Made by a program: the position numbers and the translations under genes. From Candidatus Kaiserbacteria bacterium RIFCSPLOWO2_01_FULL_50_24 (GTDB lineage Bacteria; Patescibacteriota; Minisyncoccia; Phycocordibacterales; UBA2100), in contig MFLU01000010.1 of NCBI GenBank assembly GCA_001783335.1, positions 30,122 to 94,121 of the forward strand: 64,000 nt of DNA, read 5' to 3'. The notes beneath the pieces were generated by a model. It was not told the origin of the DNA. It did no database searches and was given only the letters and a program-made list of their open reading frames with translations. Shown here piece by piece: positions 12,892 through 62,938 of this stretch; within the stretch, counting starts at the first letter, position 1; the number at the start of each line of letters is the position of its first letter.

Positions 12892-12892
12892 T

Positions 12893-15240: not shown

Positions 15241-15245
15241 TCATT

Positions 15246-15626: not shown

Positions 15627-15639
15627 TATGTGCCAATCT

Positions 15640-15800: not shown

Positions 15801-15815
15801 TTATTTTCCTTATCT

Positions 15816-16250: not shown

Positions 16251-16378
16251 ATTAAAAACTAAAAGTGAAAAATGAAAAACGACAACTTAAAATGTAAAAC
16301 CACACACACGCTTCTCGGAAGTTTTTAACTTTTCATTGTCGTTTTTAGATTTTCATTTTAAATTTTAAACTTGTTATT
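16251..16378. repeat. Family-B intergenic foldback repeat (arms aaaaatgaaaaacgacaa / ttgtcgtttttagattttcattt, core cacacgcttctcgg)
   Basis: It is nearly identical to 18621-18748, and a truncated copy lies at 18171-18266. Confidence 0.8.
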
Positions 16379-16993: not shown

Positions 16994-17201
16994 GATTTTC
17001 TTTCGAGCGGAGTGAGTTAGAAACAACCTTACCCGGCACCTTTTCTATCCACCTATGATATCTACTACCTTGCACAACATGGGATGCTATGTTACGATGG
17101 TTTCTTAATGTGCAAACCCGCACAAAAGGTGTCGGGTGTAAGTTTTTGTAACTCATACATACTCACTTTAGTTCGTATTTATTCATAACAAAATCTAACA
17201 C

Positions 17202-18170
17202 ATGTCTGACTACCACATCGCCCTACCTAGCAAACCGCGCATTGTCTCTGAGTCAGAGACCAGCGGTTCATACGAAATAGACGGCTTGTATCCAGGATAC
17301 GGCTACACACTCGGCAATTCTTTGCGGAGGATTATTTTGTCTTCCTTACCCGGCGCCGCGATTACCCATGTAAAAATCCCTGGGATTTCGCATGAATTTT
17401 CCACCATAGAAGGAGTGCGCGAAGATGTGGTGACTTTACTTCTCAACGTACGAAAAATTCGTTTGCGTCTTGTTTCCGATGAACCGCAAACACTCACACT
17501 ATCAGTAAAGGGTCCCAAAGAGGCCACTGCGGCAGATATTACCACTCCGGGGCAAGTGGAGGTTCTGAATCCGGAACAGCACGTAGCAACCATAAGTAGC
17601 AAGACAACGCTAGAGATGGAGCTGCATGCAGAGCGCGGCTTGGGATATGTGCCTAAAGAGGTGCACCAAAAAGAGCGCGTGGATATCGGAACTATCGCGC
17701 TTGATGCAGTGTTCTCTCCTATTCGCCGCGTAAACTACGAGGTGGAGAACATGCGCGTTGGTGATAGAACGGACTTCAACAGATTGCGCATCTTTATAGA
17801 AACGGATGGAACCATTACGGCGCACGAAGCGCTCACGCGCTCTATTGAGACCATGATTCACCAATTGAAGGCGGTCGTTGGATTTAAGGAAGAAGAGGAG
17901 GTGCCGCAAGAAGTGGTTGCGGCCGGCGAGTTGCCCGCCGTGCGAGAAGATAGACTCTCTGCTGACGCCGAGCTCTTAAAAACGCGCATATCGGAGCTGA
18001 AGCTTTCGGCACGTGTTGAGGATGCGCTTAATGAAGCATCTATTCGCACAGTGGGCGGATTGGTACGGAAGCGTGAAGATGACCTTCTGGCGATAGAGGG
18101 ACTGGGGCAAAAGGGGTTGCAGGATATTAAGAGAGCACTTTCAAATTTAGGGCTCACTTTGAGGCAATAG
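17202..18170 (+). CDS. rpoA: DNA-directed RNA polymerase subunit alpha
   Basis: It has the LYPGYGYTLGNSLRRIILSSLPGAA motif and an alpha-CTD helix-hairpin-helix at the C-terminus. Confidence 0.95.
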   Translation: MSDYHIALPSKPRIVSESETSGSYEIDGLYPGYGYTLGNSLRRIILSSLPGAAITHVKIPGISHEFSTIEGVREDVVTLLLNVRKIRLRLVSDEPQTLTLSVKGPKEATAADITTPGQVEVLNPEQHVATISSKTTLEMELHAERGLGYVPKEVHQKERVDIGTIALDAVFSPIRRVNYEVENMRVGDRTDFNRLRIFIETDGTITAHEALTRSIETMIHQLKAVVGFKEEEEVPQEVVAAGELPAVREDRLSADAELLKTRISELKLSARVEDALNEASIRTVGGLVRKREDDLLAIEGLGQKGLQDIKRALSNLGLTLRQ

Positions 18171-18266
18171 AAATTAAAAATGTAAAACCGAATACACGCT
18201 TCTCGGCAGTTTTTAACTTTTCATTGCAACTTTTAGATTTTCATTTTAAATTTTTAACTTACTACC
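18171..18266. repeat. Family-B repeat, truncated copy
   Basis: It shares cacgcttctcggcagtttttaacttttcattg...tttagattttcattttaaattt. Confidence 0.75.
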
Positions 18267-18620
18267 GTGCGTCATCACAATAAAAACAGAATACTGGGTC
18301 GCACAAAAAGGCAACGTACAGCGCTTTTACGCGGCTTGGCGCGTTCACTTGTGCTTCACGGCGCCATTGTGACTACCGAGGCGAAAGCAAAAGAGCTTCG
18401 TCCGTTCATAGAGCGTGTTGTCACAGATGGTAAGAAGAAGACGCTTGCCTCACGTCGTTCCGTGACGACCAAGCTGGCTAGCTCACGTGAAGCGACTCAA
18501 AAACTTTACGAAACGTACGCGACACGTTTCATAAACCGCGCAGGCGGATATACGCGCATTGTAAAACTCGGGACACAAGGTAAGCGTGTGGGCGAAATGG
18601 CGAGGATAGAGTTTGTATAA
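18267..18620 (+). CDS. rplQ: 50S ribosomal protein L17
   Basis: The translation matches L17. Confidence 0.95.
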   Translation: MRHHNKNRILGRTKRQRTALLRGLARSLVLHGAIVTTEAKAKELRPFIERVVTDGKKKTLASRRSVTTKLASSREATQKLYETYATRFINRAGGYTRIVKLGTQGKRVGEMARIEFV

Positions 18621-18748
18621 ATTAAAAACTAAAAGTGAAAAATGAAAAACGACAATTTAAAATGTAAAACGGCACACACGCTTCTCGGCAGTTTTTAACT
18701 TTTCATTGTCGTTTTTAGATTTTCATTTTAAATTTTAAACTTGTTGTT
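18621..18748. repeat. Family-B repeat, full copy
   Basis: It is nearly identical to 16251-16378. Confidence 0.8.
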
Positions 18749-19093
18749 ATGTTTGAATACAAAATAAATGCAACAGGGAAATCTCTCGGGCGTGTTGCGT
18801 CCGAGGCCGCTAAAGCGCTCATTGGGAAAACAAGCGCCGAATATACGCCGCGCATTCCTTCTCGCGTGCGTGTTACCATAGAGCACGCCGCTAAAATCTT
18901 TATGACGGAACGGAGAAAGCGGGACATTAACACGCGTTACTCCGGTTATCCGAGTGGCTTAAAACGAGAAACTCTCGGCGCGCTTGTTGGGCGCCGCGGC
19001 ATAGAAGAAGCGCTCCGCATAGCGGTGAAGGGTATGCTCCCGCGCAACCGTCTTTTAGTGGGGAGAATGAAAAAACTTATCGTCAGTGAGTAA
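18749..19093 (+). CDS. rplM: 50S ribosomal protein L13
   Basis: The translation matches L13. Confidence 0.95.
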   Translation: MFEYKINATGKSLGRVASEAAKALIGKTSAEYTPRIPSRVRVTIEHAAKIFMTERRKRDINTRYSGYPSGLKRETLGALVGRRGIEEALRIAVKGMLPRNRLLVGRMKKLIVSE

Positions 19094-19111
19094 TCTGACA
19101 CACACACTAGT

Positions 19112-19507
19112 ATGGTGAAAGAACACACATATACGGAGGGGATTGGACGGCGGAAGACCGCGAGTGCGCGTGTGCGTATTGAAAAAGCAAAAAACGCGTC
19201 GCTAATCGTCAACAACAAGAAAGCGGATGAATACTTTCCGCTTGCCGCTATGGTAAAGACTGCCTATGCGCCCTTGAGTTCTCTCAATGCCCACTATGCA
19301 GTATCCGCGCATGTTTCCGGTGGGGGTCATAAAGCACAGGCAGAAGCCGTGCGTATGGGAATTGCGCGCGCAATCGTGAAGGTGGATGGCGAACAAAGAA
19401 AGCAGCTAAAGGTGTTGGGATTTTTGAAACGCGACCCGCGCGCCAAGGAACGCAAGAAATTCGGCCTAAAGGCGGCGCGCCGAGCTCCCCAGTGGTCTAA
19501 GCGGTAG
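19112..19507 (+). CDS. rpsI: 30S ribosomal protein S9
   Basis: The translation matches S9 and ends ...RRAPQWSKR. Confidence 0.95.
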   Translation: MVKEHTYTEGIGRRKTASARVRIEKAKNASLIVNNKKADEYFPLAAMVKTAYAPLSSLNAHYAVSAHVSGGGHKAQAEAVRMGIARAIVKVDGEQRKQLKVLGFLKRDPRAKERKKFGLKAARRAPQWSKR

Positions 19508-19575
19508 ATATGAAAATTTAGCTTCCTATTTTCGGACTATGGGTCCTACAGCGACCTAGTTCCTAGGCCGCATTT

Positions 19576-19603
19576 TTGCATCCGGCAATATCTCTGGTAT
19601 AAT
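19576..19603 (+). promoter_or_regulatory. Sigma70-like promoter for grpE (TTGCAT - 16 nt - TATAAT), predicting a near-leaderless grpE transcript
   Basis: The -35 box is at 19576-19581 and the -10 box at 19598-19603. The grpE ATG is at 19612. Confidence 0.5.
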
Positions 19604-19611
19604 GTTCTTTA

Positions 19612-20193
19612 ATGACGGAACGGCAAGATGAAGGCGAGCTGTTCTCTAGCGAGGACGGGATAACTGTTGAACCGAGCGAAGAGCTGGGAGAACTTGGCGT
19701 GCTGAAGCAAAAAATACAAAAGCTCAAGGTGGAGCTTGAAGAATGCAAGAAAGAACGCACGGAATATTTGGATGGCTGGCAGAGATGCAAGGCGGATGCT
19801 ATAAACGCGAGAAAAGACAGTGAGTCAAAAGTGGCGCGAAGCGCTGAAATTTTGCGCGAAGCGCTCGTTCACGATATTATTCCCGCACTGGATAGTTTTG
19901 ATATGGCGGCGGGGAGCGAGGTATGGACAGAAGTGAACGATGGCTGGAAAACGGGTATGGAGGCTGTGCGTGACCAGCTTATTGACGCTCTGCGGCGACA
20001 CGGTATTGAGCGATTTGGCAAGGTTGGCGACGTGTTTAATCCTGCGCTTCACGATGTTGCGGAGGAAAAAGACGATGTCGTCGGTGAGGCGGGCAGTATT
20101 GCTATCGTTTTGCGATTCGGGTACAGAGCTGGTGATAGAGTGTTGCGTCCGGCGCAGGTGGTAGTAAAATCTTTAGAAAAGCAAGGAGCGTAG
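19612..20193 (+). CDS. grpE: Nucleotide exchange factor GrpE
   Basis: It has a coiled-coil N-terminus, and the RCKADAINARKD motif resembles the GrpE signature. Confidence 0.85.
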   Translation: MTERQDEGELFSSEDGITVEPSEELGELGVLKQKIQKLKVELEECKKERTEYLDGWQRCKADAINARKDSESKVARSAEILREALVHDIIPALDSFDMAAGSEVWTEVNDGWKTGMEAVRDQLIDALRRHGIERFGKVGDVFNPALHDVAEEKDDVVGEAGSIAIVLRFGYRAGDRVLRPAQVVVKSLEKQGA

Positions 20194-20308
20194 CGACTAT
20201 GTTTTACCTAACCCCAGTGAAATGCGCCTTCGGCGCTCGCCGCTTCGCGGCGATTTCACGGGGTGTAAGAGCTTCTAAATTCATTATCATTCATTAAGAA
20301 TCTCTAAC

Positions 20309-22210
20309 ATGTCCAAAATATTAGGTATAGACCTCGGTACCACAAACTCCGCGATTGCGGTGGTAAGGTCAGGCGAGCCTGAAATTATTGAGAACGCTGA
20401 AGGGGCTCGTACGACGCCATCTGTCGTTGCGATCTCAAAAACCGGAGAGCGTTTGGTCGGACTTCTTGCGAAGCGTCAGGCAGTAACGAATCCGAAAAAT
20501 ACTGTTTATCAAATGAAGCGCTTCATCGGGCACATTTTTGACGAACCGGCGGTAGCAAAGGATAGAGAGGCGGTACCGTTTGAAACGCGCAAGTCCGCCA
20601 ACGGCGGCATTGAGATACAAATGGGCGACTCTTCGACAGGCTCAGGGCAAGCTAAGTGGTACCGTCCCGAAGAAATATCCGCAATGGTTCTGCAGAAATT
20701 GAAACACGATGCGGAGGCGCGGCTTGGAGAAACGATTACAGAGGCGATTATTACCGTACCGGCGTACTTTAACGATTCTCAACGACAAGCAACGAAAGAC
20801 GCGGGGCGTATTGCCGGTCTTGACGTGAAGCGAATAATCAATGAGCCGACCGCCGCGGCGCTCGCGTATGGTTTCAACAAAAAGAAAAACGAAAAAATAG
20901 TTGTATTTGACTTTGGTGGCGGCACGTTTGACATATCCGTTTTGGAAGTCGGGGATGATGTGATAGAGGTTCGCTCTACTGATGGCGATGCACATCTTGG
21001 CGGCAAAGACGTGGACCAGAAAATAATGCACTGGCTTGCGGATGAATTTAAAAGAGAGTCTGGAGTGGATGTGCGCAAAGACCCGCTAGCGCGCCAGCGT
21101 TTGGATGAGGCGGCGGAAAAGGCCAAAATTGAACTCTCTACGGCGCTTGAAACGGAAGTAAATATTCCGTTTATTACCTCTACTGATGCCGGCCCCCAAC
21201 ACCTTCTTATCAAATGTACGCGAGCGAAACTGGAGGAACTCACGGAAGAGTTTATTGAACGAGCCGTTCTTATAACGAAACGCGCGATGGACGCATCGCC
21301 ATTCAAGGTTGGCGATATACACGAGGTGATACTTGTGGGTGGGCAAACACGCATGCCGGCTATCCAAAAGGCGGTTGAGGGGATTTTCGGAAAAAAACCG
21401 CACATGGGTGTGAATCCGGATGAGGTGGTGGCAATTGGCGCCGCGATACAGGGCGGCATCATGCAGGGGGATGTAAAAGACGTTTTACTTTTGGATGTCA
21501 TTCCGCTCTCACTCGGCATTGAAACGCTTGGCGGCGTGGCGACAAAACTCATTGAGCGCAACACGACTATCCCCACGTCGCGTTCGCAGGTGTTTTCAAC
21601 CGCCTCAGATAACCAGCCGTCGGTGGAAATTCACGTGGTGCAGGGCGAGCGGCCCATGGTCACAGATAATAAATCACTCGGGAGGTTTAATTTAGACGGC
21701 ATTCCGCCGGCGCCTCGCGGAACACCGCAAGTTGAAGTGTCCTTTGATATTGATGCGAACGGTATATTGAGCGTAAAAGCACGCGACAAAACAAGCGGCA
21801 AGGAGCAGTCCATCCGCATTGAAGCATCCTCGGGACTTTCCGAAGCGGATATTAAAAAAATGAGGCAGGATGCCGACGCGCATGCCGACGAGGATAAAAA
21901 GAAACGCGAACTTATTGAAGAGCAAAACGCCGCTGACCAGATTGTATATGCCGCCGAAAAAGCGCTCAAAGAACACGGCGACAAGGTGGGCGATGACATT
22001 AAGAAAAACGTGCAGGAAAAAATAGACGCCGCTAAAGCGGCACGCGGCGGCACAGATACGGCCAGCATAAAATCCGCTGCCGAGGCGCTCTCGCAGGCGA
22101 TGAGCGCAATCGGCCAAGCGATGAGTCAACAGCAAAATCAACCGCCGAAAGAAGGAGGTGAACAATCGTCTTCGAACGGGGATCAGCCGCCGTCCGCAGA
22201 ATCTAAATAA
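20309..22210 (+). CDS. dnaK: Chaperone DnaK (Hsp70)
   Basis: It carries [16 protein letters not shown] and the other Hsp70 signatures. Confidence 0.97.
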
Positions 22211-24075: not shown

Positions 24076-25554
24076 ATGCACATGGTACTAAAAGAATTGC
24101 GTACGCACACATCTGATATGTGGTCTAAGATTCAAACTAAGTACATGTGCACTTTGTTCACACGAGCTGCGAAACGTGTTCCCGCATACGCGCGTTTTCT
24201 AAGAAACAGTAAAGCGCATCAACGAACTCCAACGGCACAAACATTTCTTGCAATCCCGCCAATCACAAAAGACAATTATCTTCGAAAATCTTTATTCCCC
24301 GATTTATTTTGGGATGGGGTAATCAGTTCGCCCCACATGCTTACAGCGACTTCTGGCTCGACGGGGAAACCTGTGTACTTCGCACGCTCTCACTCGGTAA
24401 ACGATCAGTCATCCGCCATCCATGAACTGTTCTTTACTTCGTGCTCGCTTTCCTCAAAGAAATCAACACTCGTTATTGTGTGTTTTGGGATGGGTGTATG
24501 GATAGGTGGTTTCATTACGAGCGAGGCGTTTGAACTTATGGGCCGGCGCGGCTATCCGGTTGCCGTAATAACTCCGGGACTTAACAAGCAAGAAATTTTT
24601 AAGGCGCTAAAGCAGTTGGCGCCGCAGTACGAACAGCTTATTATTGCCGGCTATCCGCCATTTGTTAAAGACGTGCTCGATGAGGCCGAAGAAAATGGTA
24701 TCTCTATACGAAAACACAAAACAGCACTCGTGTTTGCAGCCGAAGCATTCACGGAATCATTTCGTGAATACGTTGCAAAAAAAGCGAATGTGCGAAATGT
24801 TTTGACAGACACAATGAACATTTACGGGAGTGCAGATTTGGGGACCATGGCGTTTGAGACGCCCGTGTCCATACTTATCCGACGACTTGCATGTAAACAT
24901 CCCGATCTTTTCCGAGCCCTATTTGGTGGAACAGATAAAACACCGACGCTTGCGCAGTACATCCCACACTTCACATCCTTTGAGGCATTGAAAGGCGAGT
25001 TATTGGTAACCGGAGACAGCGCGACGCCACTCATACGATATGCGATAGGAGATCGCGGCGGCGTGTACACCTATGATGAAATTTCAAGCATATGCAAAAT
25101 GCACGGCGTACATCTTACAAAAGAACTTGCCCGCGCGGGTATCGCGACAAAAACCGCTAAGCTACCGTTTGTGTTTGTCTACGAACGTCTTGACCTCTCC
25201 ACAACACTATACGGCTTGCAGATATATCCGGAGATTATTCGCGAGACATTGCTCCAGAGTGGATTTGTACAACGTCTAACGGGACGCTTAACGCTTGTAA
25301 CAAAATTTGATGATCGTCAAAATCAATATCTGGAAATAAACGTTGAACAACGGCGTGGGGCAGAAGTTGAAAAAGCGCTTGCCGCAAAGTTAAAAGCGGA
25401 GATCGTAAAAAACTTAAAACTAAAAAGTGCAGAATTTTACGAGCTCTCCTTGCATCTCGGCGAACGTACAGAGCCGCGACTCATATTCTGGCCGCATGAA
25501 GACCCTACATACTTTCGGCCGGATACGAAACAGAAATGGGTCGTGAAGTCTTAA
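24076..25554 (+). CDS. PaaK/F390-synthetase-family adenylate-forming enzyme (phenylacetate-CoA ligase-like)
   Basis: It has the AMP-binding motif TSGSTGKP and PaaK-like length and layout. Confidence 0.7.
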   Translation: MHMVLKELRTHTSDMWSKIQTKYMCTLFTRAAKRVPAYARFLRNSKAHQRTPTAQTFLAIPPITKDNYLRKSLFPDLFWDGVISSPHMLTATSGSTGKPVYFARSHSVNDQSSAIHELFFTSCSLSSKKSTLVIVCFGMGVWIGGFITSEAFELMGRRGYPVAVITPGLNKQEIFKALKQLAPQYEQLIIAGYPPFVKDVLDEAEENGISIRKHKTALVFAAEAFTESFREYVAKKANVRNVLTDTMNIYGSADLGTMAFETPVSILIRRLACKHPDLFRALFGGTDKTPTLAQYIPHFTSFEALKGELLVTGDSATPLIRYAIGDRGGVYTYDEISSICKMHGVHLTKELARAGIATKTAKLPFVFVYERLDLSTTLYGLQIYPEIIRETLLQSGFVQRLTGRLTLVTKFDDRQNQYLEINVEQRRGAEVEKALAAKLKAEIVKNLKLKSAEFYELSLHLGERTEPRLIFWPHEDPTYFRPDTKQKWVVKS

Positions 25555-25564
25555 AATCCACGCT

Positions 25565-26599
25565 ATGCCAGAAAAATTCAGTGCAGAGACGTATAAAAAA
25601 GATTTTGAGAGTAAAGATTCGTGTAACGCTCGCATTAAGCATATTTTGTCGTATGCTATCCGTGCGCCGTCTACGCACAACAGTCAGCCGTGGAAGTTTA
25701 TCCTCACGGGAAATCGACTATCTATTATCAACGACGAGTCGATACGGTTGCCGAAAAGTGACGCACTCGGACGCTATCGGCACATTAGCTTTGGATATCT
25801 TATTCATCATATCGTGTTGCTTGCGGCGTACAGTGGCACGCAAACGATGACGCGACTTGGGCGAGCGCCGGTTATTGCAGAAATAGAGTTCCACACACAG
25901 CATGGAGTTTTTGACGTTACCATCGCTCCGTTAATAAACGCCTTGTGCTCCAGGCGGAATCGCCGCGGTATATTTGAGCGCGACAGTGCGATACCACACA
26001 ATACGCTTGAGGCGGCGTCTGCACGTTCTCCACTTTTTCCCGCCGCACTAGCAAAGCCGGAATGCGCCATCGCGAGTGGGAGAACAGTTGCATGTATTGC
26101 ATCATGCACGGCCGAGGGCATGCGGCGAGCGTATCGCTCAAATGCGTTCCGTCGAGAAATGGCCTCATGGATTACACCAACAGGCTCATGGAGAAAAACA
26201 GGTATTCCCGGCTATTCGCTGAACCAGCCCGCGATACTTTCGTGGCTTTTGCCGAACATTATTCGTTTTATAGACATTGGAAGATTTCTCTCAAAGTTAA
26301 ACGTCACGTCTATTTCTTCCGCACCATGTGTATTTGGATTCGCCGGAGACGACACGGTTTCTTCATGGATTGGAGTTGGTTTTCAGGCATCACATACGGC
26401 ACTTACGCTCACTGCCGCAAGATTTGACGTTTCTGTATATGTAGCGGCCATGGAGTATGACGATACGCGCCGAGAGGCGGGACGCGCATTCGGATTTTCC
26501 CATCCGCTCCAATTTTTATTTGCAACCGGCGCACTTAAGGGCAATGTGTCGTGGTGCACTCCTCGTGTCCCCGTATCGCAAAAACTCACCGAGCGTTAA
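25565..26599 (+). CDS. Tandem nitroreductase-fold protein (Acg-family-like)
   Basis: The N-terminal motif AIRAPSTHNSQPWKF is the nitroreductase signature. At 344 aa it is about twice the single-domain size, as in Acg-type proteins. Confidence 0.6.
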   Translation: MPEKFSAETYKKDFESKDSCNARIKHILSYAIRAPSTHNSQPWKFILTGNRLSIINDESIRLPKSDALGRYRHISFGYLIHHIVLLAAYSGTQTMTRLGRAPVIAEIEFHTQHGVFDVTIAPLINALCSRRNRRGIFERDSAIPHNTLEAASARSPLFPAALAKPECAIASGRTVACIASCTAEGMRRAYRSNAFRREMASWITPTGSWRKTGIPGYSLNQPAILSWLLPNIIRFIDIGRFLSKLNVTSISSAPCVFGFAGDDTVSSWIGVGFQASHTALTLTAARFDVSVYVAAMEYDDTRREAGRAFGFSHPLQFLFATGALKGNVSWCTPRVPVSQKLTER

Positions 26600-26624
26600 T
26601 ACGGTCGTACGGTACAATAGTGAA

Positions 26625-27668
26625 ATGGGAAAGGCATCGCTTATTACCATACGTTCGTTTGGCGGTGAGCCCGAACGAGATGCATACGTACGTTCTCTGA
26701 AAGAGCGCCAGATTTCGTACCATGATCTCTACGATATGCAGTGTGCGGAACTTGCGGAAATTCGCGACCCCCGCTCATTCGGAAAAAAGCCGCTTCCCCT
26801 TACGTCTCTGCCCGACGATAGGATAGTTGAGTATCCGTGGCGTAACACGGCAATTCGCACAGTTGAACTACACGCTTTTTCAGAATTGCGCACCGCAAGA
26901 AACCACAACCTTATTACTCCAGAGGAGCAGTCTATTTTTGCGACTTCGCATATTGCATTTGCAGGTCTAAACGTTGGCAATCCGGGAGCCGTGTGCGTGG
27001 CGCTTGAAGGTGGCGCGCGCTCCATGTCGCTTGCGGACCCGGACATTCTTTTAACGGCGAATCTCAACAGATTTCGTGCGGGATTGCCGGATGTCGGTCT
27101 GAACAAGGCGGAACTCACGACACGACAAATACTTGAAATAGACCCCTACTACACCCTCTCCGTCTCAGCCGAAGGATTGACGTCCGGTTCGCTCATGCAA
27201 TTTCTCTCTGAACCGAAAGCGCGAGTGCTTGTAGAAGAAATGGACGCTCTGCCGCTGAAACTTTTTATCCGGGACGAGGCGCGAAAGCTTGGGGTACCGG
27301 TTGTTATGGTGACGGGTATCGGAGATGGCGTGCTTCTTGATGTTGAGAGGTATGACCTTGACCGTAATACGCCGCTTCTCAACGGCTTACTTGACCGAGC
27401 GGTTGAGGACGCTATTCGTTCCGCCGAGTCAATGTCGCCGGAAAAAAAGATAAAACTTGCCCATGATTTCATCGGAACTTCATATCTCGAACCGCGCCTG
27501 AATGATTCGTTTGCAGAGATAGGAAACACTCTCGTGGGCATTCCGCAAATAGCCGAGTCGTCGTTTATGCGTGGCGCCGCCATCGCGCGAGCGGTGCGGA
27601 CCATTGTGTGCGGTGGGAACATGCCCTCCGGACGTTACTCGTTTTCTCTATCTCCATGCCTGAAGTAG
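26625..27668 (+). CDS. ThiF/MoeB/E1-like adenylyltransferase-family protein
   Basis: The Rossmann and E1 signature HIAFAGLNVGNPGAVCVALEGG...ANLNRF matches VxGxGxxG...SNLNRQ. Confidence 0.6.
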   Translation: MGKASLITIRSFGGEPERDAYVRSLKERQISYHDLYDMQCAELAEIRDPRSFGKKPLPLTSLPDDRIVEYPWRNTAIRTVELHAFSELRTARNHNLITPEEQSIFATSHIAFAGLNVGNPGAVCVALEGGARSMSLADPDILLTANLNRFRAGLPDVGLNKAELTTRQILEIDPYYTLSVSAEGLTSGSLMQFLSEPKARVLVEEMDALPLKLFIRDEARKLGVPVVMVTGIGDGVLLDVERYDLDRNTPLLNGLLDRAVEDAIRSAESMSPEKKIKLAHDFIGTSYLEPRLNDSFAEIGNTLVGIPQIAESSFMRGAAIARAVRTIVCGGNMPSGRYSFSLSPCLK

Positions 27669-42821: not shown

Positions 42822-43361
42822 CTATTCGCGCTTCTCCCCCGCCTCTAAATATACGGCCCCTAGTGCATTTTTAAGAACATCTAAAGATGTATATAATCGC
42901 TTTGATGCGCGTGTTTCGGGACCTCCAGAGAGCTCTATAGCCTCCTCTTGTGACACGAAGCGACATTCTTCTATTTCATCCTCACCGCATTTGACCTTGC
43001 GCTGCTCTTCTGGCATCACTTCCCCACCAAAAAATGTAAATTGAATGCGGTCACCAAACGAATCGTCTTTCGGCACGTAGTGAACACACAGTAACGACAG
43101 TTTTTTAAGCGTTAAGCCAGCCTCTTCCAATACCTCGCGTTTGCATGCGTCGTGTGGCGATTCGTCTGCATCAACCAAGCCGCCGGGCAAAGACCAATGC
43201 TTCTTATAGTGTGCTTTTACGAGTAGGAGCTTTCCATGCTCGTCAAAAATTATTGCGCCTGAGGAAATCGGCTTTTTGGGCAGCGTCTTGTAAAATTCAT
43301 TCGGCGGTAGAAATACACCCATCAGTGCATTGTACTCTTTAAAAAAAGAACGACCACCCAC
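42822..43361 (-). CDS. NUDIX hydrolase
   Basis: It has the Nudix box GGLVDADESPHDACKREVLEEAGL. Confidence 0.8.
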   Translation of the reverse strand: MGGRSFFKEYNALMGVFLPPNEFYKTLPKKPISSGAIIFDEHGKLLLVKAHYKKHWSLPGGLVDADESPHDACKREVLEEAGLTLKKLSLLCVHYVPKDDSFGDRIQFTFFGGEVMPEEQRKVKCGEDEIEECRFVSQEEAIELSGGPETRASKRLYTSLDVLKNALGAVYLEAGEKRE

Positions 43362-43756: not shown

Positions 43757-44263
43757 TCACCATCGCCCGCGCTCATTTCGCACACCTGCGCAGTATGCCT
43801 CTATTCTTCTACGATTCGCTGGAGACGTCGTATCCGGCAAGTTATCAAAAGCAAAAATGCCGCGCTGCATAATCTCCCCGTTAGGGACAAATTTTATACT
43901 TCCGTCGTAGTCATTCGTAAACAGCACTTGAACGATGTCGTGCTTTCCGAGCGCTCCCTCATACACACCCAGCTCACCGGTAAAGTTGTTTACTATATAA
44001 CCGGTTTCTTCGCGCACCTCACGCTTTCCAGCGGCTTCCGGTGACTCGCCCGCGTCAACCGCGCCACCGGGGAGAGTCCACACTCCAGGAGCAAACCAGT
44101 GCCGCACAAGCACAACTCTCCCATCTCGCTCCAAAATCACACGCACGCCGTGTATTTGTTCTTGCCCACCGAACCAGCGTAGAAGCACGTAACGCCCAGC
44201 GTGCGCAATAAACAAAATCGTTTGCGATATGAGTGCGCCAAGGCGCCTAAGTAGCCGCCGCAT
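43757..44263 (-). CDS. NUDIX hydrolase (second, divergent copy)
   Basis: It has the Nudix box GGAVDAGESPEAAGKREVREETGY. Confidence 0.75.
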   Translation of the reverse strand: MRRLLRRLGALISQTILFIAHAGRYVLLRWFGGQEQIHGVRVILERDGRVVLVRHWFAPGVWTLPGGAVDAGESPEAAGKREVREETGYIVNNFTGELGVYEGALGKHDIVQVLFTNDYDGSIKFVPNGEIMQRGIFAFDNLPDTTSPANRRRIEAYCAGVRNERGRW

Positions 44264-49768: not shown

Positions 49769-52645
49769 CTAAGTTCTTAAAACAAAGTTTACAAGGCGAT
49801 TTGGAACGACGATTACTTTTACCACTTCCCTGCCCTGTAGTCGCGTGGCCACCACTTCACGAGCGGCGCGTTCGTGCTCGACTTTGTCTGCCCTCGTAGC
49901 GATGGTCACCTCGCCGCGCACCTTGCCATCTATCTGCACGGCAATGGTTACCGTTTCGTCTTTCAGAAACTTTTCATCATATTCCGGCCACTTTTGGAGA
50001 TGAATGGACCCTTTTCCGCCACATTGAGACCATAGCTCCTCCGCGACATGCGGCACAAATGGAGCAAGGAGTTTCAAGAATATTTCCCACTGTTTTTTTC
50101 CTATCGTTTTTTCTTTCTCTGCGGCATTCATAAAAATCATCAATTGACTTATTGCCGTATTGAATTTGAACGCCGCAATATCTTCCGTAATTTTCTTTAT
50201 TGTTCGGTGTAAAGATGTTTGCAGATTTGGATTTTCTGGAAGCTTAAAGCTAGAAGCTGGAAGCTGACCCCGTCGCCATATACGCTCCAAAAAACGGCGC
50301 ACGCCTATCAGACTCTCGGTTTTCCATGCAATCGTATTCTCAAATGGCCCCATGAACATTTCGTAAAGGCGTAGAGTATCAGCTCCGTAAAGCTTCACCA
50401 CGTCGTCGGGATCAATGGTGTTTTTGAAGCGCTTACTCATTTTTCGGCCGTCTTCGGCAAGCACAAGCCCGACAGTATGAAGCTGTATGAATGGTTCCAT
50501 CGTTGAGACGATGCCTATGTCGTGCAGAAATTTGTGCCAGAAACGGGCATATATGAGGTGTCTCGTTGCATGTTCCACGCCGCCCACATACACGTCAACC
50601 GGCAACCATTTTTGTATTTTGTTTTGAAGTTTGGTACTTAGAGATTGTTTGGAATTTGGTACTTGTGATTTGAGATTTTCGCTTATGCAATAAGCGATGT
50701 GGTACCAGCTTGAGCCCGCCCACTGCGGCATCGTATTCGTTTCGCGCCTCCCTTTCCCGCCGCACGTCGGACACTTCGTATTCACCCACTTCGTGATATT
50801 GGCAAGCGGTGATTCACCGGTGCCGGACGGCGCATACGATTTCACTTCCGGCAATATAACTGGCAGATATTTTTCCGACACCGGCACCACGCCGCATTTT
50901 TCGCAATGAATCATGGGGATCGGCTCACCCCAGTATCGCTGGCGCGAAAAAATCCAATCACGCAATTTGTAGGTAGTTTTTGGTGTGCCGAAACGCGCAG
51001 TTATTTTTTTTCTCGCCTCCGCACTATCCGTACCGCTAAACTCGCCCGAATCAATGAGAATACCCTCGCCCATATATGCATCCATGCCAGAAAATATGCG
51101 TTCAGTAATGATCTGTGCTTCAGAATGTTGAAACCGTGTTTTAGTGAGGTCACGGGCGGGTATCCACACCACCTCATGCTTCTCCGCTTCTTTTGGATCA
51201 ATCTTCTCGCGTGCATCGCTTGCAAGCTCAAAAAGCAATAGAGAATTACGTGCAACGCGATTGACCCCCTTGTGCGCCGCATAGAATTCCGCCTGCGCAT
51301 CGCCACCAAGTTTGCGCACAAATCGCACATCGGTGTATCCGGTTTCCTCGGCTATCTCGCGCCGCGCCGACTCGACAACGTCTTCCCCATTCTCCACGCC
51401 GCCCGTAACATACGTGATCCACGGTTGTTTTTTCCAGCGGAGCGTCAGATAGCGATCGGTTTTCGGATCGTACACAATGTTGATCGTTGCACGCCGATGC
51501 ACCACTTCCTTGTTCGGTTGATGCGGATTGGTCGGATCCGGCAGATGCGGCATGATAACGTCGCGTATGGAAATATTGTATTTTTTAGCAAACTCAAAAT
51601 CGCGCTCGTCGTGCGCCGGAACCGCCATAATGGCACCTGTTCCTACACCCGCCAGCACATAGTCTGCGACAAATATCGGTATTTCTTCTTTCGTCGCCGG
51701 ATTAACTGCCCTTATTCCTTCAAGTAGAACTCCCGTCTTTTCCTTATGTTCCTGCCGTTCCAGATCAGACTTTTTTGCTGCAGCTTTTATATAATCCTCC
51801 ACCTCATCTGAATTTACGCAAGTCTGACTTGCGTAAATAGACTGTACGAGCGTATGCTCCGGTGCGAGTGTAAGATATGTCGCTCCAAACAGTGTGTCGG
51901 GTCTCGTTGTAAAAACCTCTATTTGAAATTTGGATTTTAAAATTTGAAATTTTATCAGTGCGCCCTCGGATTTTCCGATCCAATTTCTCTGCAGTTCTTT
52001 TATGTACTCCGGCCACGGCAGAGTGTCGAGGTCGGCAAGCAGTCGGTCGGCGTAGTCGGTAATGCGTAGAACCCATTGCGGCAAGCGTTTTTGCTCCACA
52101 ACCGTGCCGCAGCGCTCGCACGCATTTCCTTCCAGATCTTCATTTGCAAGCCCCGTCTTGCACGACGGACACCAGTTGATCGGCTCATCAGACTGATACG
52201 CGAGGCCTTTTTTAAAAAGCTGGAGAAAGATCCACTGCGTCCACTTGTAGTATTCCGGGTCGGTAGTGTTTATTTCGCGGTCCCAATCGTAGTCAAAACC
52301 TATATGCGAGAGCTGTTCCTTAAAGCGCGCGATGTTTTTCTTCACCGCCACGCGCGGATGCACTTTATTTTGGAGCGCATAGTTCTCCGCCGGAAGACCG
52401 AATGCATCCCACCCCATTGGGTGTAGCACCGATCTTCCGCGCATACGCTGAAATCGCGAGTAAATATCGCTCGCGATGTAGCCCTTGGGATGCCCCACGT
52501 GGAGCCCCTCTCCCGAGGGATACGGAAACATATCAAGTACATAGCACTTCTTTTTTCCTTTTTTTTCAGTGGAGCGGTATACTTTTTTCTTCGCCCATTG
52601 CAGTTGCCATTTTCGCTCAATAGATTTGTGATCGTATCGCTTCAT
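49769..52645 (-). CDS. leuS: Leucyl-tRNA synthetase carrying an inserted Nudix domain (about aa 365-520) and two repeat-derived low-complexity inserts
   Basis: It has HVGH (HIGH), KMSKR, the editing-domain motif TTRPDT and a LeuRS C-terminus. The insertion after the editing domain contains a perfect Nudix box GGVENGEDVVESARREIAEETGY. Confidence 0.95.
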   Translation of the reverse strand: MKRYDHKSIERKWQLQWAKKKVYRSTEKKGKKKCYVLDMFPYPSGEGLHVGHPKGYIASDIYSRFQRMRGRSVLHPMGWDAFGLPAENYALQNKVHPRVAVKKNIARFKEQLSHIGFDYDWDREINTTDPEYYKWTQWIFLQLFKKGLAYQSDEPINWCPSCKTGLANEDLEGNACERCGTVVEQKRLPQWVLRITDYADRLLADLDTLPWPEYIKELQRNWIGKSEGALIKFQILKSKFQIEVFTTRPDTLFGATYLTLAPEHTLVQSIYASQTCVNSDEVEDYIKAAAKKSDLERQEHKEKTGVLLEGIRAVNPATKEEIPIFVADYVLAGVGTGAIMAVPAHDERDFEFAKKYNISIRDVIMPHLPDPTNPHQPNKEVVHRRATINIVYDPKTDRYLTLRWKKQPWITYVTGGVENGEDVVESARREIAEETGYTDVRFVRKLGGDAQAEFYAAHKGVNRVARNSLLLFELASDAREKIDPKEAEKHEVVWIPARDLTKTRFQHSEAQIITERIFSGMDAYMGEGILIDSGEFSGTDSAEARKKITARFGTPKTTYKLRDWIFSRQRYWGEPIPMIHCEKCGVVPVSEKYLPVILPEVKSYAPSGTGESPLANITKWVNTKCPTCGGKGRRETNTMPQWAGSSWYHIAYCISENLKSQVPNSKQSLSTKLQNKIQKWLPVDVYVGGVEHATRHLIYARFWHKFLHDIGIVSTMEPFIQLHTVGLVLAEDGRKMSKRFKNTIDPDDVVKLYGADTLRLYEMFMGPFENTIAWKTESLIGVRRFLERIWRRGQLPASSFKLPENPNLQTSLHRTIKKITEDIAAFKFNTAISQLMIFMNAAEKEKTIGKKQWEIFLKLLAPFVPHVAEELWSQCGGKGSIHLQKWPEYDEKFLKDETVTIAVQIDGKVRGEVTIATRADKVEHERAAREVVATRLQGREVVKVIVVPNRLVNFVLRT

Positions 52646-55672: not shown

Positions 55673-55795
55673 AGTATTCGGGAACAGGCATGCTCCGTAG
55701 AAAACACCCCCCGATTGGCTGACAATCGGGGGCGAAGTGTGACAAGGCACGGCCTTGCCGAAGTTGCTGTAATTGGGACAAACTCTAAATTTCAA

Positions 55796-57115
55796 TTACG
55801 TATGTATGATATTGACCGCCAGCTCTTCCACTTTCCCGCGCAGGTGCGCGTAGATCCGCGGATTACGAGCAGAAAGAATCTGCAGAGCGGCGAGAGCGGC
55901 ATTTGCCGGCTCAAGCACGGTCATGACCGGCACATTGCTCGGCACGTGAAGCGAAGACCATACGTCATCGGGAAAATTCTTGACGCTTGCCGGTACCGTA
56001 ATGACCGGAATAGTCGACAAAGCGGAAAGGACCGGGCCCGCGCCGTTGCTTCTGCCGATGTAGGCGATGACTACCGAATCCGGTACTTCCTGCACCAAAC
56101 GATACAGAATCGACGCGGCGGCCACCGGCTCTTTGTGAACGGAGCAGATAATAACCGGGATATTCTCATTCGGAAAGTGCGGCGATAGCAAGTCGACCAT
56201 CTCTTCGACATTGTCACTTTCGGACCCGCGCCAGAGAATAATCCTCTGCCGCGGTAGCTTAAAGAGAGCAGTGATATCAGCCACATGACGATACTTCGCC
56301 GCAACATCGTCAAGCGCGCCGCCGTCGCGATAGGCCTGCTTGTCGATGTAGATGCCGTCTTCGACGACACGCCACGAGTCATTGTCAATGACATCTGTGA
56401 GAAGAAGACGGCCTTTCGAATCAATGCCTAATTCAACTTTGAAGTCAACCAACCTCCGACCCGCAAGCTGCCACGCCTTCTCAAGAACGAGGAACGCCTG
56501 CGAAGCGATACGACGCATCTCCGGAAAAATCTTCCACTCCTCCTGATATCCGAAGACTTGCATCTCCGGAAGGGTAAGGAACGGCTTTTGCCCGTGAATT
56601 GGCTCTGTGGGGTTGTAGAGAGCAATCTCACCCGCGCCCTCGGCATAGAACATGAGCGGGTCATCGCAGACGAGCTCGTGTGCTTTCCACCGCCTATCCT
56701 TCGTCTTGAGGAAAAACTCGATAAGAAGCTTCGGAAACAAGTGCCCCTTTTCTATGTGCGGGTTTCGCTTAAGATAGGACCCGTGCGCCTCGCGCCTCAC
56801 CACCACCTCGTAGGGAAGCATGAGACACTTCGGTGCAGTAAATGAATTCGCGCTCACCTGTTGCTTGAAAGCGACGGGCACCCCGCATGCTTGGAGAAGT
56901 CGGAAAACATTGCAGGTCGTCTCATTGGCAAGACGACCCTTGTCAGGAATCACATCGTGCTTCGCTCCATCACCTGCGGTAATGTCGTCCTTAGACGTGA
57001 GAACCACCAAACGATCATCACCCTTAACTTGATGAATCGTCTTGGTCTTTCCTTCGGCTATCAACATGCCGAGGGGATACTTGGTTGAAAGCCGTTCAAC
57101 CGTTTGAGCGCCCAT
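55796..57115 (-). CDS. purCE: Bifunctional SAICAR synthetase (PurC, N-terminal) and PurE-type AIR carboxylase/N5-CAIR mutase (C-terminal), a PAICS-like fusion
   Basis: The PurC N-terminus is LIAEGKTKTIHQV...DDITAGDG. The C-terminal half carries PurE signatures GSESD, SVHKEP and IGRSNGAGPV. The start at 57115 has an AAGGAAAGGA RBS. Confidence 0.8.
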   Translation of the reverse strand: MGAQTVERLSTKYPLGMLIAEGKTKTIHQVKGDDRLVVLTSKDDITAGDGAKHDVIPDKGRLANETTCNVFRLLQACGVPVAFKQQVSANSFTAPKCLMLPYEVVVRREAHGSYLKRNPHIEKGHLFPKLLIEFFLKTKDRRWKAHELVCDDPLMFYAEGAGEIALYNPTEPIHGQKPFLTLPEMQVFGYQEEWKIFPEMRRIASQAFLVLEKAWQLAGRRLVDFKVELGIDSKGRLLLTDVIDNDSWRVVEDGIYIDKQAYRDGGALDDVAAKYRHVADITALFKLPRQRIILWRGSESDNVEEMVDLLSPHFPNENIPVIICSVHKEPVAAASILYRLVQEVPDSVVIAYIGRSNGAGPVLSALSTIPVITVPASVKNFPDDVWSSLHVPSNVPVMTVLEPANAALAALQILSARNPRIYAHLRGKVEELAVNIIHT

Positions 57116-57255
57116 GGCCTGTCCTATCCTTTCCTTGGTTTGGATTACGTAAAAGACCAGACTCTGCCGATATCTTACTCTAGAGTCCCAGAATAGCAAA
57201 AATTTTCATATCAATATCTGCTTCCGCATCTTTGTGATATATGATATAAGATTGT

Positions 57256-58698
57256 ATGCCAAAAGAGCTTGCGCTGACTCGCTTTGATACGCCTCACGTA
57301 CCGCGGCCACATGTAAATGCCATCGTTCGTCCACATCACTTCTTCTCACCCGAAGATCGCCGAAGGGCCGCTCTCATCGCTGGCTGGAACGTATTCCAGT
57401 TTCCGTCTGAAATGCTTCAGGGTGGTGATTTACTTTCGGATTCCGGTACAACGACACTAACCCTTGAGCAACTTTCAGCCATGGTTTTAGGTGACGAGGC
57501 ATATGGAAGCAATTGGGGGTATTTCCAGTTACTTGAAACATTTGAAAAAACATTCGGCATTTCACAGAAAACTTGGAACATATATCTTTTTCATCAAGGT
57601 CGTGCGGCCGAACATGCTCTCTACTCGCACATTGGCAAGAGCGGTCTTGTGATACCTTCAAACGGATTTTTTGATACCACACGTGCAAACGCTGAAGCAA
57701 ATGGCATTAGAGCGCTTGATATACCAAGAGTACGCTATACAAAAAATGAGATTTTTGGAGGAGATATAGACCTCGTCGAACTTGAACGTACGCTGAAAAC
57801 GCATACCGCATCAGTGCCATTTGTACTTCTTACCATCACAAACAACACCGGTGGCGGCCAGCCGGTCTCTATGGAGAACATACAAGAGGTGCGGACATTG
57901 TGTAAACGCTATAAAACGTCACTATTTCTAGACGCATGCCGATTTGCTGAAAACGCGTGGTTTATCAAGCGGCACGAAGCGGGCCATGCACAAAAATCAA
58001 TCTCAAAGATTGTGCATGACATGTTCTCACTATGTGACGGATTTACTATCTCACTCAAAAAAGACGGTCTCTCGCACATGGGGGGTGCGTTGGTGATTCG
58101 TAACTCCGCTCCCCTCCTCAAACATAAACCGCAACTTGCGGAGGAGTTGCGCGATCACCAAATACTTACCGAAGGACATCCAACGTACGGCGGTATGACG
58201 GGTCGAGACATTATGTCTGCTGTGGAGGGGTTACGGCATGTTGTGGACGAGCATTACCTTGAGGGGCGTATTGGGCTTGTGCATGATTTTGGGTCATACC
58301 TTGCAAAACTTGGAATTCCGATTGTGAAGCCCGTGGGAGGACATGCGGTGTATATAGATGTAGACCGTTTTTTTGCCGGAACCAAGATGAAGCGCGAAGA
58401 TTTTGGCGGCATATCACTTACGGCGCTGTTACTTCTTAAGGGTGTGCGCTTATGCGAGTTGGGTGCATTTGCATTTGGAACATATGATTCAAAAGCAAAA
58501 AAGGATGTGCTTCCTCCAAAAAATTATGTGCGCGCCGCGGTGCCGAGAAATAAGTACGAACAGAACGATTTATATTATGTTGCCGATTGCATAAAGGGGC
58601 TTTTTGAAAATCGGGAGAAACTGCCCAGAGCAGTCCCAACGTATGGAAGAGATAAAACCCTGCGACATTTTAAAGCGCGATTTAGACTCGAGTGGTAG
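57256..58698 (+). CDS. Beta-eliminating lyase (tryptophanase / tyrosine phenol-lyase family)
   Basis: It has the PLP-lysine region KKDGLSHMGG, plus SGTT and GDEAYGSN motifs and about 470 aa. Confidence 0.8.
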   Translation: MPKELALTRFDTPHVPRPHVNAIVRPHHFFSPEDRRRAALIAGWNVFQFPSEMLQGGDLLSDSGTTTLTLEQLSAMVLGDEAYGSNWGYFQLLETFEKTFGISQKTWNIYLFHQGRAAEHALYSHIGKSGLVIPSNGFFDTTRANAEANGIRALDIPRVRYTKNEIFGGDIDLVELERTLKTHTASVPFVLLTITNNTGGGQPVSMENIQEVRTLCKRYKTSLFLDACRFAENAWFIKRHEAGHAQKSISKIVHDMFSLCDGFTISLKKDGLSHMGGALVIRNSAPLLKHKPQLAEELRDHQILTEGHPTYGGMTGRDIMSAVEGLRHVVDEHYLEGRIGLVHDFGSYLAKLGIPIVKPVGGHAVYIDVDRFFAGTKMKREDFGGISLTALLLLKGVRLCELGAFAFGTYDSKAKKDVLPPKNYVRAAVPRNKYEQNDLYYVADCIKGLFENREKLPRAVPTYGRDKTLRHFKARFRLEW

Positions 58699-61144: not shown

Positions 61145-62938
61145 TCACCGCACAATGACACTTGTCTCTTTTGTAACCATTTCCCCTCCTGCAACTTTAC
61201 ACCGAAATACAAACGTATGCTCTCCGGGAGCGAGGTCAGAGGTCTGAATTACCTTGTTAGAGCTCTCCTTGCTCTCGGAGATGCGCGCAATACCTTCGTC
61301 CGGTTTTTTGTGACCAACCTCGCATGTCACGTTGGGAAACGCCGTGCCAACACTTGTCCATGACACAAGTATCGGATCTCCTTTGTCCAATTCCTCTGAT
61401 TGCGTGATTATCAAAAGTATCGGCTTAAACTGTTGAGGAGTAGCGGGCAGCGCTATGTCGCCACTTTTCGGCACAACGCCAGGCACCGACCACAGAATGG
61501 GACCCACGCTTCGGCTTTGGGGCGGAGCATATTGTGGCTGTTGCGGCGACGCGTTACTGCTGCCGTATGGGTTTCCGATAGCAAAAGGACTTTGTGGAAC
61601 TGGGGGAGATGTGTATGTGTAACCATTGCTCGTATCTGGAATCGGACTCTGTACGTATTTATTGTACGAGCCAGAAGGCGATACCGTACCTTTGAAAAGT
61701 GCAGAAAACCTTGCTTCATATCCATTTACCCCTGTGCCAAGCTGATCACCCGGGCACCGCTTATACACACAACCCGGCCCCGCAAACCACGCGCGTGCCG
61801 CTCCACTCGGTCCATACTGAGCCATGTATTCGCCAAATTGATGCTCAAATACACGCTCTTGCATTTCTGGACTGTCTACAAATTGCTGGGGTGTCATACA
61901 TTGACCAACTTCGCACGTCCATTGGCGAACGTTTACTCCCATAACTTGGTACTTCCCATACGCCCTATCGCCCGTTCTCGTTATGGACCCGAGCTTGTAA
62001 TAATTGCAACCGCTTTCGGGAAAACAGATCGCATATTTTGCACGGTCCATATCCGAGAGTTCGCTTTGAGTAATGCTTGCGGGAGCATTCTGGTTGAACC
62101 CCGTGGCGCTCGGCACGCCGACATATGGAGTGTTTGGATCGCCGGAGGCGGCAACTGTGGAGTCTTGTTTTATTTCATCACTGATTCTCCCCACGTTCGA
62201 AATCACCTCATCGTTGAGCTTTAGTTCCCGCGCGATACTTTCCGCTCCAGTCTTGTTTCCTTCTGCCATCGCACGAAGCATATCTGATGCTCGATTGGGA
62301 TTGGATGCGATAACCTCGTTGGCATTCGCGACCCCCATAGTGCGCAATTGCTCGGCAAGTTGTTGCCTTCCCGCATCGGTGGAGGGATCGGCCGGAAGTG
62401 TTAGGGCGTTGAAGAGGCCGCGCGTTGAAGGGCCCTCTGCGATTACTTGCGCAAGACTCGGCGCTTGCTCCCGCGCAAGCGCTTCCAGTGACGATACGCT
62501 TTCTGAATCAATGGAGGCGCGGAATGCTTGATTTAATTTATTCTTGTCGCATTTTGATACAGTGATTTTCTTGGAGTCGGAAGAGTTTTTCAAAATAATG
62601 ACCACGCGCGGTGGGATTTGTCCCTTCGCACAACCATATTTTTCCTTGTCCGCTTCGGTACGGCATTCGCGTGTCGTCTGTATGCTCAAAGTAGAACTCA
62701 GCACTCTTTGGGTCAAAGTTATCTCTTCATCTGAACAAAGATCTGCACAGCTTACTTGCCTTTCGGCCTGTCCCTTTACGGCATCTTTTGATGTCAGCGT
62801 AACAGTTTGGCCTGATTTAAGGCATTGCGGTTCGGCGGCATATACAAATACAAAGGGTGCGCCAACACCAATAACGAACAAAGCCATCAACGCGCCCGAA
62901 AGTCGCATAGCTACCATTGTAGCAAGAATATGCTGCAT
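61145..62938 (-). CDS. Large secreted hypothetical protein (signal peptide; Cys-rich central domain, possibly lysozyme/SLT-like; C-terminal beta-rich domain)
   Basis: It has an N-terminal signal sequence. Only a weak family assignment is possible. Confidence 0.5.
   Translation of the reverse strand: MQHILATMVAMRLSGALMALFVIGVGAPFVFVYAAEPQCLKSGQTVTLTSKDAVKGQAERQVSCADLCSDEEITLTQRVLSSTLSIQTTRECRTEADKEKYGCAKGQIPPRVVIILKNSSDSKKITVSKCDKNKLNQAFRASIDSESVSSLEALAREQAPSLAQVIAEGPSTRGLFNALTLPADPSTDAGRQQLAEQLRTMGVANANEVIASNPNRASDMLRAMAEGNKTGAESIARELKLNDEVISNVGRISDEIKQDSTVAASGDPNTPYVGVPSATGFNQNAPASITQSELSDMDRAKYAICFPESGCNYYKLGSITRTGDRAYGKYQVMGVNVRQWTCEVGQCMTPQQFVDSPEMQERVFEHQFGEYMAQYGPSGAARAWFAGPGCVYKRCPGDQLGTGVNGYEARFSALFKGTVSPSGSYNKYVQSPIPDTSNGYTYTSPPVPQSPFAIGNPYGSSNASPQQPQYAPPQSRSVGPILWSVPGVVPKSGDIALPATPQQFKPILLIITQSEELDKGDPILVSWTSVGTAFPNVTCEVGHKKPDEGIARISESKESSNKVIQTSDLAPGEHTFVFRCKVAGGEMVTKETSVIVR

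Follow-up and report, generated by a model that had tools for sequence, protein, structure and literature searches.

A PAICS-type PurC-PurE fusion in a Kaiserbacteria genome belongs to a large bacterial family

We describe a gene for a fused PurC-PurE protein in a 64,000-nucleotide stretch (hereafter the window) of the genome of Candidatus Kaiserbacteria bacterium RIFCSPLOWO2_01_FULL_50_24 (contig MFLU01000010.1), a tiny-genome member of the candidate phyla radiation (CPR, Patescibacteria). The gene lies at 55796..57115 on the minus strand and joins a succinylaminoimidazolecarboxamide ribonucleotide (SAICAR) synthetase domain to an aminoimidazole ribonucleotide (AIR) carboxylase domain, in the order seen in metazoan PAICS. 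Judged by full-length sequence and modelled fold matches to solved PAICS structures, this is a genuine PAICS-type bifunctional architecture, and we put the probability that the protein is a genuine bifunctional enzyme of purine biosynthesis at roughly three in four. The architecture is real and not unique to the Kaiserbacteria window. It is widespread in several bacterial groups, and the fusion is one of a large family of bacterial proteins, so far uncharacterised, that is common in CPR, Verrucomicrobiota and Xanthobacteraceae.

The gene is complete, running from an ATG at 57115 to a TAA at 55796-55798. A first-pass annotation, made from the sequence alone, had reported one open reading frame (ORF) of 440 aa with a PurC N-terminus and a PurE C-terminus; the single uninterrupted frame stands, and the protein is 439 aa long, the 440th codon being the stop. 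No internal stop or frameshift was found within 55796-57115, including between the domains, and Pfam recognises both halves: SAICAR_synt (PF01259; 1.6e-40, 139.7 bits against a cut-off of 20) at aa 19-140 and in a second stretch, and AIRC (PF00731; 5.8e-20, 71.8 bits against a cut-off of 30) at aa 297-429. The motifs quoted in that annotation are all present (LIAEGKTKTIHQV at aa 18-30, GSESD at 297-301, SVHKEP at 325-330 and GRSNGAGPV at 354-362). A longer frame of 467 aa could start at a TTG at 57199, 28 codons upstream. We prefer the ATG because homologues of 437-445 aa begin at the same ATG and because an AGGA/AAGGAAAGGA Shine-Dalgarno-like sequence lies 6-21 nt 5' of it; the purine-rich stretch AAGGAAAGGATAGGA (57122..57136, minus strand), recognised by consensus resemblance only, ends 6 nt before the ATG. 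About 64 nt past the stop, a pattern scan places a terminator-like hairpin with a T-rich tail (55708..55732, minus strand; 10-bp stem with 7 GC pairs), which is weak evidence, as four such sites were found where 2.0 were expected. The protein is 100% identical to A2673_00795, an NCBI 'hypothetical protein' of a Candidatus Kaiserbacteria metagenome-assembled genome (MAG).

The closest relatives of solved structure are insect PAICS (4ja0, 2.8e-60) and human PAICS (2h31, 2.3e-54; 36% identity to the human enzyme), each matching over both halves of the fusion, and stand-alone PurC and PurE chains from the PDB rank far below these PAICS chains. Together with the Pfam assignments, these matches uphold the PAICS domain order, PurC followed by PurE, that had been read from the translation. 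The placement is further supported by an AlphaFold2 monomer model built from a 90-sequence alignment, which is predicted with high confidence (predicted local distance difference test, pLDDT, 95.5; predicted template modelling score, pTM, 0.94). In a Foldseek search of the PDB with this model, the top match is human octameric PAICS (6yb8, chain 6yb8_A; E 1.6e-34, template modelling (TM) scores 0.69/0.72, 433 aligned columns), followed by PAICS from Bombyx.

The PurE half (aa 291-435; 55811..56245, minus strand) is, by its signature residues, a predicted class II AIR carboxylase. The SVHK motif at aa 325-328 (56132..56143, minus strand) contains the catalytic Ser and His and the class II-specific Lys that is Arg in class I enzymes; S325-V-H327-K328 corresponds to S301-A-H303-K304 in human PAICS and to SAHK in Treponema denticola PurE. 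Similarly, the loop G354-R-S-N-G-A-G-P-V362 (56030..56056, minus strand) is the class II counterpart of the class I loop AGGAAHLPG and aligns with GRSNGLGPV in human PAICS (G330-G334 and following) and with GRSNAL in T. denticola. The GSESD loop at aa 297-301 (56213..56227, minus strand), predicted to bind phosphate and ribose, aligns with human G273-S274-T275-S276-D277. In human PAICS, the His acts as general base, and roles have been assigned to Ser301, to the phosphate-binding Lys304 and to the G-S-x-S-D loop (PMC9376930); the Arg of class I in place of human Lys304 has been described as a difference between the PurE classes (PMC10484210). The class I motifs of E. coli PurE, SAHRTP and (A)GGAAHLPG, are not present in the fusion, to which E. 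coli PurE aligns at only E = 0.29. With the PurE half alone as query, PAICS and T. denticola class II PurE outscore most class I PurEs. The question of class I or class II that the first-pass annotation had raised is therefore answered by these residues in favour of class II. We further note that tblastn finds no homologue of PurK in the 64-kb window or in about 170 related loci.

The PurC half (aa 13-285; 56261..57079, minus strand; Pfam PF01259 and TIGR00081) is only 27% identical to E. coli PurC, and all the residues tested that contact carboxyaminoimidazole ribonucleotide (CAIR), ADP/ATP or Mg in the E. coli enzyme are conserved in the alignment. E. coli R94, S100, D175, E179, R199 and R215 correspond to R107, S113, D224, E228, R249 and R263 of the fusion, and D191, which we take to be a Mg ligand, corresponds to D241. 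The roles of the E. coli residues other than D191 in contacting CAIR, ADP and Mg have been described previously (PMC3261824). The ATP loop G22-K-T-K25 is also present, within the EGKTK nucleotide-binding loop at aa 21-25 (57041..57055, minus strand) that aligns with G16-K17-T18-K19 of human PAICS (PMC9376930). One feature sets the domain apart, a family-specific insertion of about 30 aa at approximately aa 141-176 (56588..56695, minus strand), seen as a gap in the alignment to E. coli PurC. E. coli PurC has no counterpart of it, and in animal PAICS the region is shorter, chain positions 149-168 there corresponding to residues 150-200 of the query. AlphaFold2 models the insertion confidently as beta strands at 154-157 and 163-167, followed by a strand at 180-183, with mean pLDDT of 95-97 in the 10-residue blocks spanning aa 141-180.

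The catalytic positions of both domains are invariant or nearly so in 84 close homologues and largely kept in 71 distant representatives; the S, H and K of SVHK, for example, are found in all 84 sequences of the close bacterial clade. This conservation indicates purifying selection on catalysis.

Fused PurCE has been called 'common in eukaryotes' (PMC3261824), and the first-pass annotation regarded the arrangement as characteristic of animals. A restriction to animals is not supported. In GTDB species representatives, where we listed at least 600 candidate stretches, at least 588 of the 600 encode full-length relatives of the fusion, from lineages that include Xanthobacteraceae, Verrucomicrobiota, Planctomycetota, Myxococcota and many CPR. 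Among the best 80, identities are 65-74% in Xanthobacteraceae, Pseudolabrys, Rhodoplanes and Undibacter, 60-65% in Verrucomicrobiota and 59-63% in CPR (Parcubacteria, Paceibacterota, Saccharibacteria and Vogelbacteria), with one MAG each from Polyangiaceae and Tepidisphaerales. With clusters made at 90% identity, a word-indexed search likewise gives over 3,264 matching clusters, of which the best 120 have members of about 437 aa with both domains, 67-74% identical over nearly their full length, the exception being one 538-aa protein that matches just 64% of the query. Many of these 120 carry the machine-made JGI label PAICS-like. An exhaustive search of 50%-identity representatives yields 2,081 clusters below 1e-3 and 484 below 1e-30, with Uhrbacteria, Woykebacteria/Microgenomates and animals among the named members. 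Stand-alone PurC of the same subtype also exists (about 280-300 aa, 45-52% identity). Plasmid carriage is unsupported, as tblastn against plasmids finds ordinary purC at no more than 31% identity and no fusion. We also note one alphaproteobacterial MAG, MFD02416.bin.2.216, that has two copies of the fusion on separate contigs (L025 and L049).

How the gene came to Kaiserbacteria is less clear than its architecture. The suggestion in the first-pass annotation that it was horizontally acquired is plausible, and recent acquisition from, or exchange with, a Xanthobacteraceae-like alphaproteobacterium, rather than inheritance within CPR, is a possibility to which we give somewhat worse than even odds. 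Among the matches listed, the highest identities are to MAGs of Xanthobacteraceae, Hyphomicrobiales and other Alphaproteobacteria (65-74%, against 59-63% for other CPR), and a neighbour-joining (NJ) tree groups the Kaiserbacteria fusion with Xanthobacteraceae and Polyangiaceae, although with bootstrap values of 47.5-64.5%. GC content at third codon positions (GC3) is 0.62 in the fusion against a window mean of 0.52 +/- 0.04, the second-highest of 51 genes; the highest belongs to a CPR-typical DUF5671 gene, so base composition is not diagnostic and cannot decide the matter. CPR sequences, moreover, branch all around the clades of Verrucomicrobia and Alphaproteobacteria. Transfer between phyla has therefore clearly occurred in the fusion family, but transfer outward from CPR would be equally possible. 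The fusion also has genes for YchF and leucyl-tRNA synthetase (LeuRS) in its vicinity in the window as well as on a 672-kb CPR contig (L095), in differing orientation, which hints at an old position.

The same trees bear on the animal enzyme. Animal PAICS is monophyletic with 98.5% NJ bootstrap, and a split that unites animals with a Woykebacteria (Microgenomates) sequence (P0360) and a metagenomic one (P0379) has an NJ bootstrap of 100% with full-length sequences and of 54% when the PurC domain is used by itself. We treat this split as a lead on the origin of PAICS rather than as a result; if it is true, a shared ancestor of the animal and Woykebacteria fusions would imply an ancient transfer of the fused gene between a bacterium and a eukaryote, in either direction. 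Rooting was attempted with E. coli PurC and other stand-alone PurCs and abandoned: deep nodes have bootstrap values of about 0% and the stand-alone PurCs are interspersed with fusions, so no direction of transfer can be claimed.

Gene context in CPR relatives ties the fusion to purine synthesis. The Vogelbacteria locus L085, which covers the same region as L100, has purB (TIGR00928, 6e-78) transcribed away from the fusion and purH (PRK00881, 8e-105) next after purB, and the same trio occurs on contig L095. In three further loci the fusion is divergent from an adjoining purB (L102, L103 and L104), and in a fourth purB lies downstream on the same strand (L106). Thus purB adjoins the fusion in six CPR loci, purH being present too in two of them. 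PurB consumes the product of PurC, and PurH completes the pathway. The recurrence of purB in two arrangements supports a real role of the fusion in the part of purine synthesis that leads from AIR to inosine monophosphate (IMP), and the context in CPR relatives points to biosynthesis rather than to the salvage orientation proposed in the first-pass annotation. Some CPR do encode purine synthesis, as is evident from a 255-kb CPR contig (L097) that carries purL, purQ, a HAD gene, purE, purC, purB, purM, purH, guaB and purA at 6571-21615, and from a survey in which 32% of 399 CPR MAGs had complete de novo purine modules (PMC11608272).

Outside CPR the context is different. Some 75 non-CPR loci have no pur gene close by and share no conserved neighbour, and clustering of neighbour proteins across the 80 GTDB loci finds no neighbour kept across phyla. 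For the pur genes we relied on tblastn with reference Pur proteins, since greedy ORF calling gave spurious antisense ORFs in high-GC loci. Two alphaproteobacterial contigs (L005 5956-9796 and L006 5549-9603) carry a xanthine-dehydrogenase-like operon (Fer2, MoCoBD and FAD_binding_5) that is transcribed away from the fusion, which hints at a possible tie to purine catabolism or its regulation in alphaproteobacterial hosts.

If both activities are present, as the conserved residues suggest, the class II PurE domain would carboxylate AIR with CO2 directly to CAIR, without ATP and without PurK, and the PurC domain would condense CAIR with aspartate at the expense of ATP to give SAICAR. In the human-type de novo route, which has 10 steps, these reactions would be the sixth and seventh, and adenylosuccinate lyase (PurB) and then PurH would carry SAICAR on to IMP. 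In this Kaiserbacteria genome, the partner enzymes are presumably encoded elsewhere.

Several observations weigh against the assignment as a bifunctional biosynthetic enzyme. The NCBIfam equivalog scores fall below the trusted cut-offs (94 against 189.9 for purC and 68 against 149.6 for purE), which suggests that the fusion represents a divergent subfamily, and the PurC insertion described above may have functional consequences. Literature searches on bacterial PurCE or PAICS, on horizontal transfer of PAICS and on purine metabolism in Kaiserbacteria found no description or enzymology of a bacterial fusion. Neither the window nor the 10 kb past its right end, about 74 kb in total, yielded purB, purH, purM or another partner, and a tryptophanase-family gene stands in the position that purB occupies in CPR relatives. 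CPR genomes, finally, often lack nucleotide synthesis (PMC8407418).

The absence of neighbouring pur genes confirms, over a longer stretch, what had been noted for the 64-kb window. Within the window it rests on Pfam analysis of about 50 ORFs and on tblastn with 22 reference proteins, for which the fusion gave the sole match, among them E. coli PurK, PurE, PurB, PurF, PurM, PurN, PurL, PurD, PurH, GuaA and Upp, PurB and PurH of Vogelbacteria, and PurM, PurL, PurQ, PurA, GuaB, PurB, PurE and PurC of L097; E. coli PurE gives nothing at 1e-5 in the window. To the right of the window, the 10 kb contain an ATP synthase operon and an IS200-like gene, and nothing else was found there. The divergent neighbour of the fusion, the tryptophanase/tyrosine phenol-lyase family gene (57256-58698, plus strand; NCBIfam PRK13238, 1e-132, above cut-off), has a GC3 of 0.43, the lowest of the 51 window genes, and it may be a recent insertion. 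Of 120 listed matches to Vogelbacteria PurH, none is named Kaiserbacteria, which is uninformative as most are nameless; the named ones include Patescibacteria-group, Paceibacterota, Taylorbacteria, Parcubacteria and Pacebacteria.

These gaps could mean that the fusion is an orphan or partial-pathway enzyme in an organism without the upper pathway and perhaps without PurH, which would use AIR, AIR riboside or CAIR imported from a host, or else that it is left over from a decaying pathway. We consider this unlikely. Retention of purC or purB in organisms that lack the purine pathway is documented (PMC6486802), and in CPR relatives it is only the lower-pathway genes purB and purH that cluster with the fusion. 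However, the pur genes of a genome are in many cases dispersed and 74 kb covers little of this one, large pur clusters exist in some CPR (L097), and no kinase for AIR or nucleosides and no transporter was seen nearby. The intact ORF, with all its catalytic residues and an identical sequence in at least 24 contigs, argues against decay. CPR lineages with only the fusion and purB, and in some cases purH, may run a truncated route from AIR to IMP on a host-derived intermediate. A wider scenario, linked to such truncated routes, would make the PAICS architecture the property of an old, diverse and CPR-rich bacterial family instead of an invention of animals, with an animal enzyme that shares a specific ancestor with a Microgenomates/Woykebacteria-type fusion; we regard these readings as unlikely.

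A neofunctionalised paralogue, acting on another carboxylated heterocycle or ligating another amino acid and perhaps coexisting with canonical purC, purE and purK in free-living Xanthobacteraceae or Verrucomicrobia, is very improbable. It would account for the low equivalog scores, the PurC insertion, the xanthine-dehydrogenase-like operon in the two alphaproteobacterial contigs and the lack of a conserved pur neighbour in the non-CPR loci. The residues that contact CAIR or AIR, ATP and Mg, however, are all as in human PAICS and E. coli PurC, and purB adjacency recurs across CPR loci. A LarB-type function was also considered and rejected, since each of the 36 PDB chains that match the C-terminal half in sequence belongs to PurE or PAICS, and neither LarB nor any other PurE-like enzyme is among them. 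An artefact, whether through contaminating eukaryotic DNA, chimeric assembly or decay to a pseudogene, has nothing in its favour other than the resemblance to animal PAICS and is rejected, given the intact ORF, the 36% identity to human PAICS, relatives in hundreds of bacterial genomes, and the independent assembly of the locus, with identical neighbours, in no fewer than 24 contigs of samples held at NCBI, ENA and JGI. These neighbours are CPR housekeeping genes (six aminoacyl-tRNA synthetases, ribosomal proteins, RpoA, DnaK, DnaJ, GrpE, MraY, MurG, FtsW, YchF, DUF5671 and an F-type ATP synthase), and their presence with the fusion in so many contigs excludes contamination and chimerism. A bifunctional PAICS-type enzyme of purine biosynthesis remains the reading that we favour.

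Other features of the window merit a brief record. In the LeuRS (49769-52645, minus strand; 958 aa) the editing domain is closely followed by an inserted NUDIX hydrolase domain (aa 383-513; Pfam 3.4e-13), which is missing from the LeuRS of L095, as that protein aligns only to aa 1-364 and 492-956 of the window protein. Two separate NUDIX hydrolase genes lie close to each other (42822-43361 and 43757-44263, minus strand), making three NUDIX domains in 64 kb. A 277-aa protein (3228-4061, plus strand) shows an unusual pairing of an N-terminal ATP-cone with an Mrr-type restriction endonuclease domain. An IS200-like Y1 transposase is encoded at 7039-7737 (minus strand), with another at 463-1173 of a longer contig of the same organism (L098), just past the ATP synthase operon. 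Directly after the ATP synthase epsilon gene, a 597-aa ORF without a Pfam domain (61145-62938, minus strand; stop and start share 62938) is found in 22 contigs. Finally, three consecutive genes at 24076-27668 (plus strand) encode a 492-aa protein without a domain match, a TM1586-type nitroreductase-like protein and a ThiF-like protein, an arrangement reminiscent of peptide-modification clusters.

The fusion has implications for the extent of purine synthesis left in CPR symbionts and for the origin of animal PAICS, and small bacterial homologues of PAICS could serve in studies of structure and mechanism. The annotation of A2673_00795 should become bifunctional AIR carboxylase (class II PurE) / SAICAR synthetase.

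Compared with known systems, the fusion is closest to metazoan PAICS (human 2h31/6yb8 and Bombyx mori 4ja0), with which it shares the order of PurC then class II PurE, a similar length (425 aa in PAICS against 439), the active-site residues of both domains, sequence matches of 1e-54 to 1e-60 and a TM score of about 0.7. The fusion differs in sequence (36% identity to the human enzyme), in its PurC insertion of about 30 aa, in its CPR host and in standing outside a purinosome context. A PAICS-type enzyme would be expected to form a homo-octamer on a PurE core with a channel joining its active sites; the octamer has been described for PAICS and PurE (PMC10484210), and the fusion is known here as a monomer model only. 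T. denticola PurE (3rg8/3rgg), a characterised bacterial class II AIR carboxylase, has the SxHK and GRSN motifs in common with the fusion, for which independence from PurK would likewise be expected, but it is a stand-alone protein of 159 aa and matches the PurE half more weakly (E 4.8e-07) than animal PAICS does. In E. coli, PurC, class I PurE and PurK occupy the same position in the pathway between AIR and SAICAR, and PurC has its catalytic residues in common with the fusion, but the genes are separate and the class I PurE (SAHR, AGGAAHLPG) needs PurK and ATP. The CPR locus L097 belongs to the same superphylum and serves the same pathway. It differs in having a class I PurE (SAHRTP, AGGAAHLAG; 51% identical to E. 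coli PurE) whose gene is followed by a separate one for a long-type PurC, the opposite of the domain order in the fusion; purK was not seen in the 21 kb covered. In reviews and drug-discovery papers, direct carboxylation of AIR and the PurC-PurE fusion have been treated as human or animal traits, with PurK and class I PurE as the microbial ones (PMC10484210, PMC11451730), a rule that is qualified by the PAICS-type fusions now found in hundreds of bacterial species.

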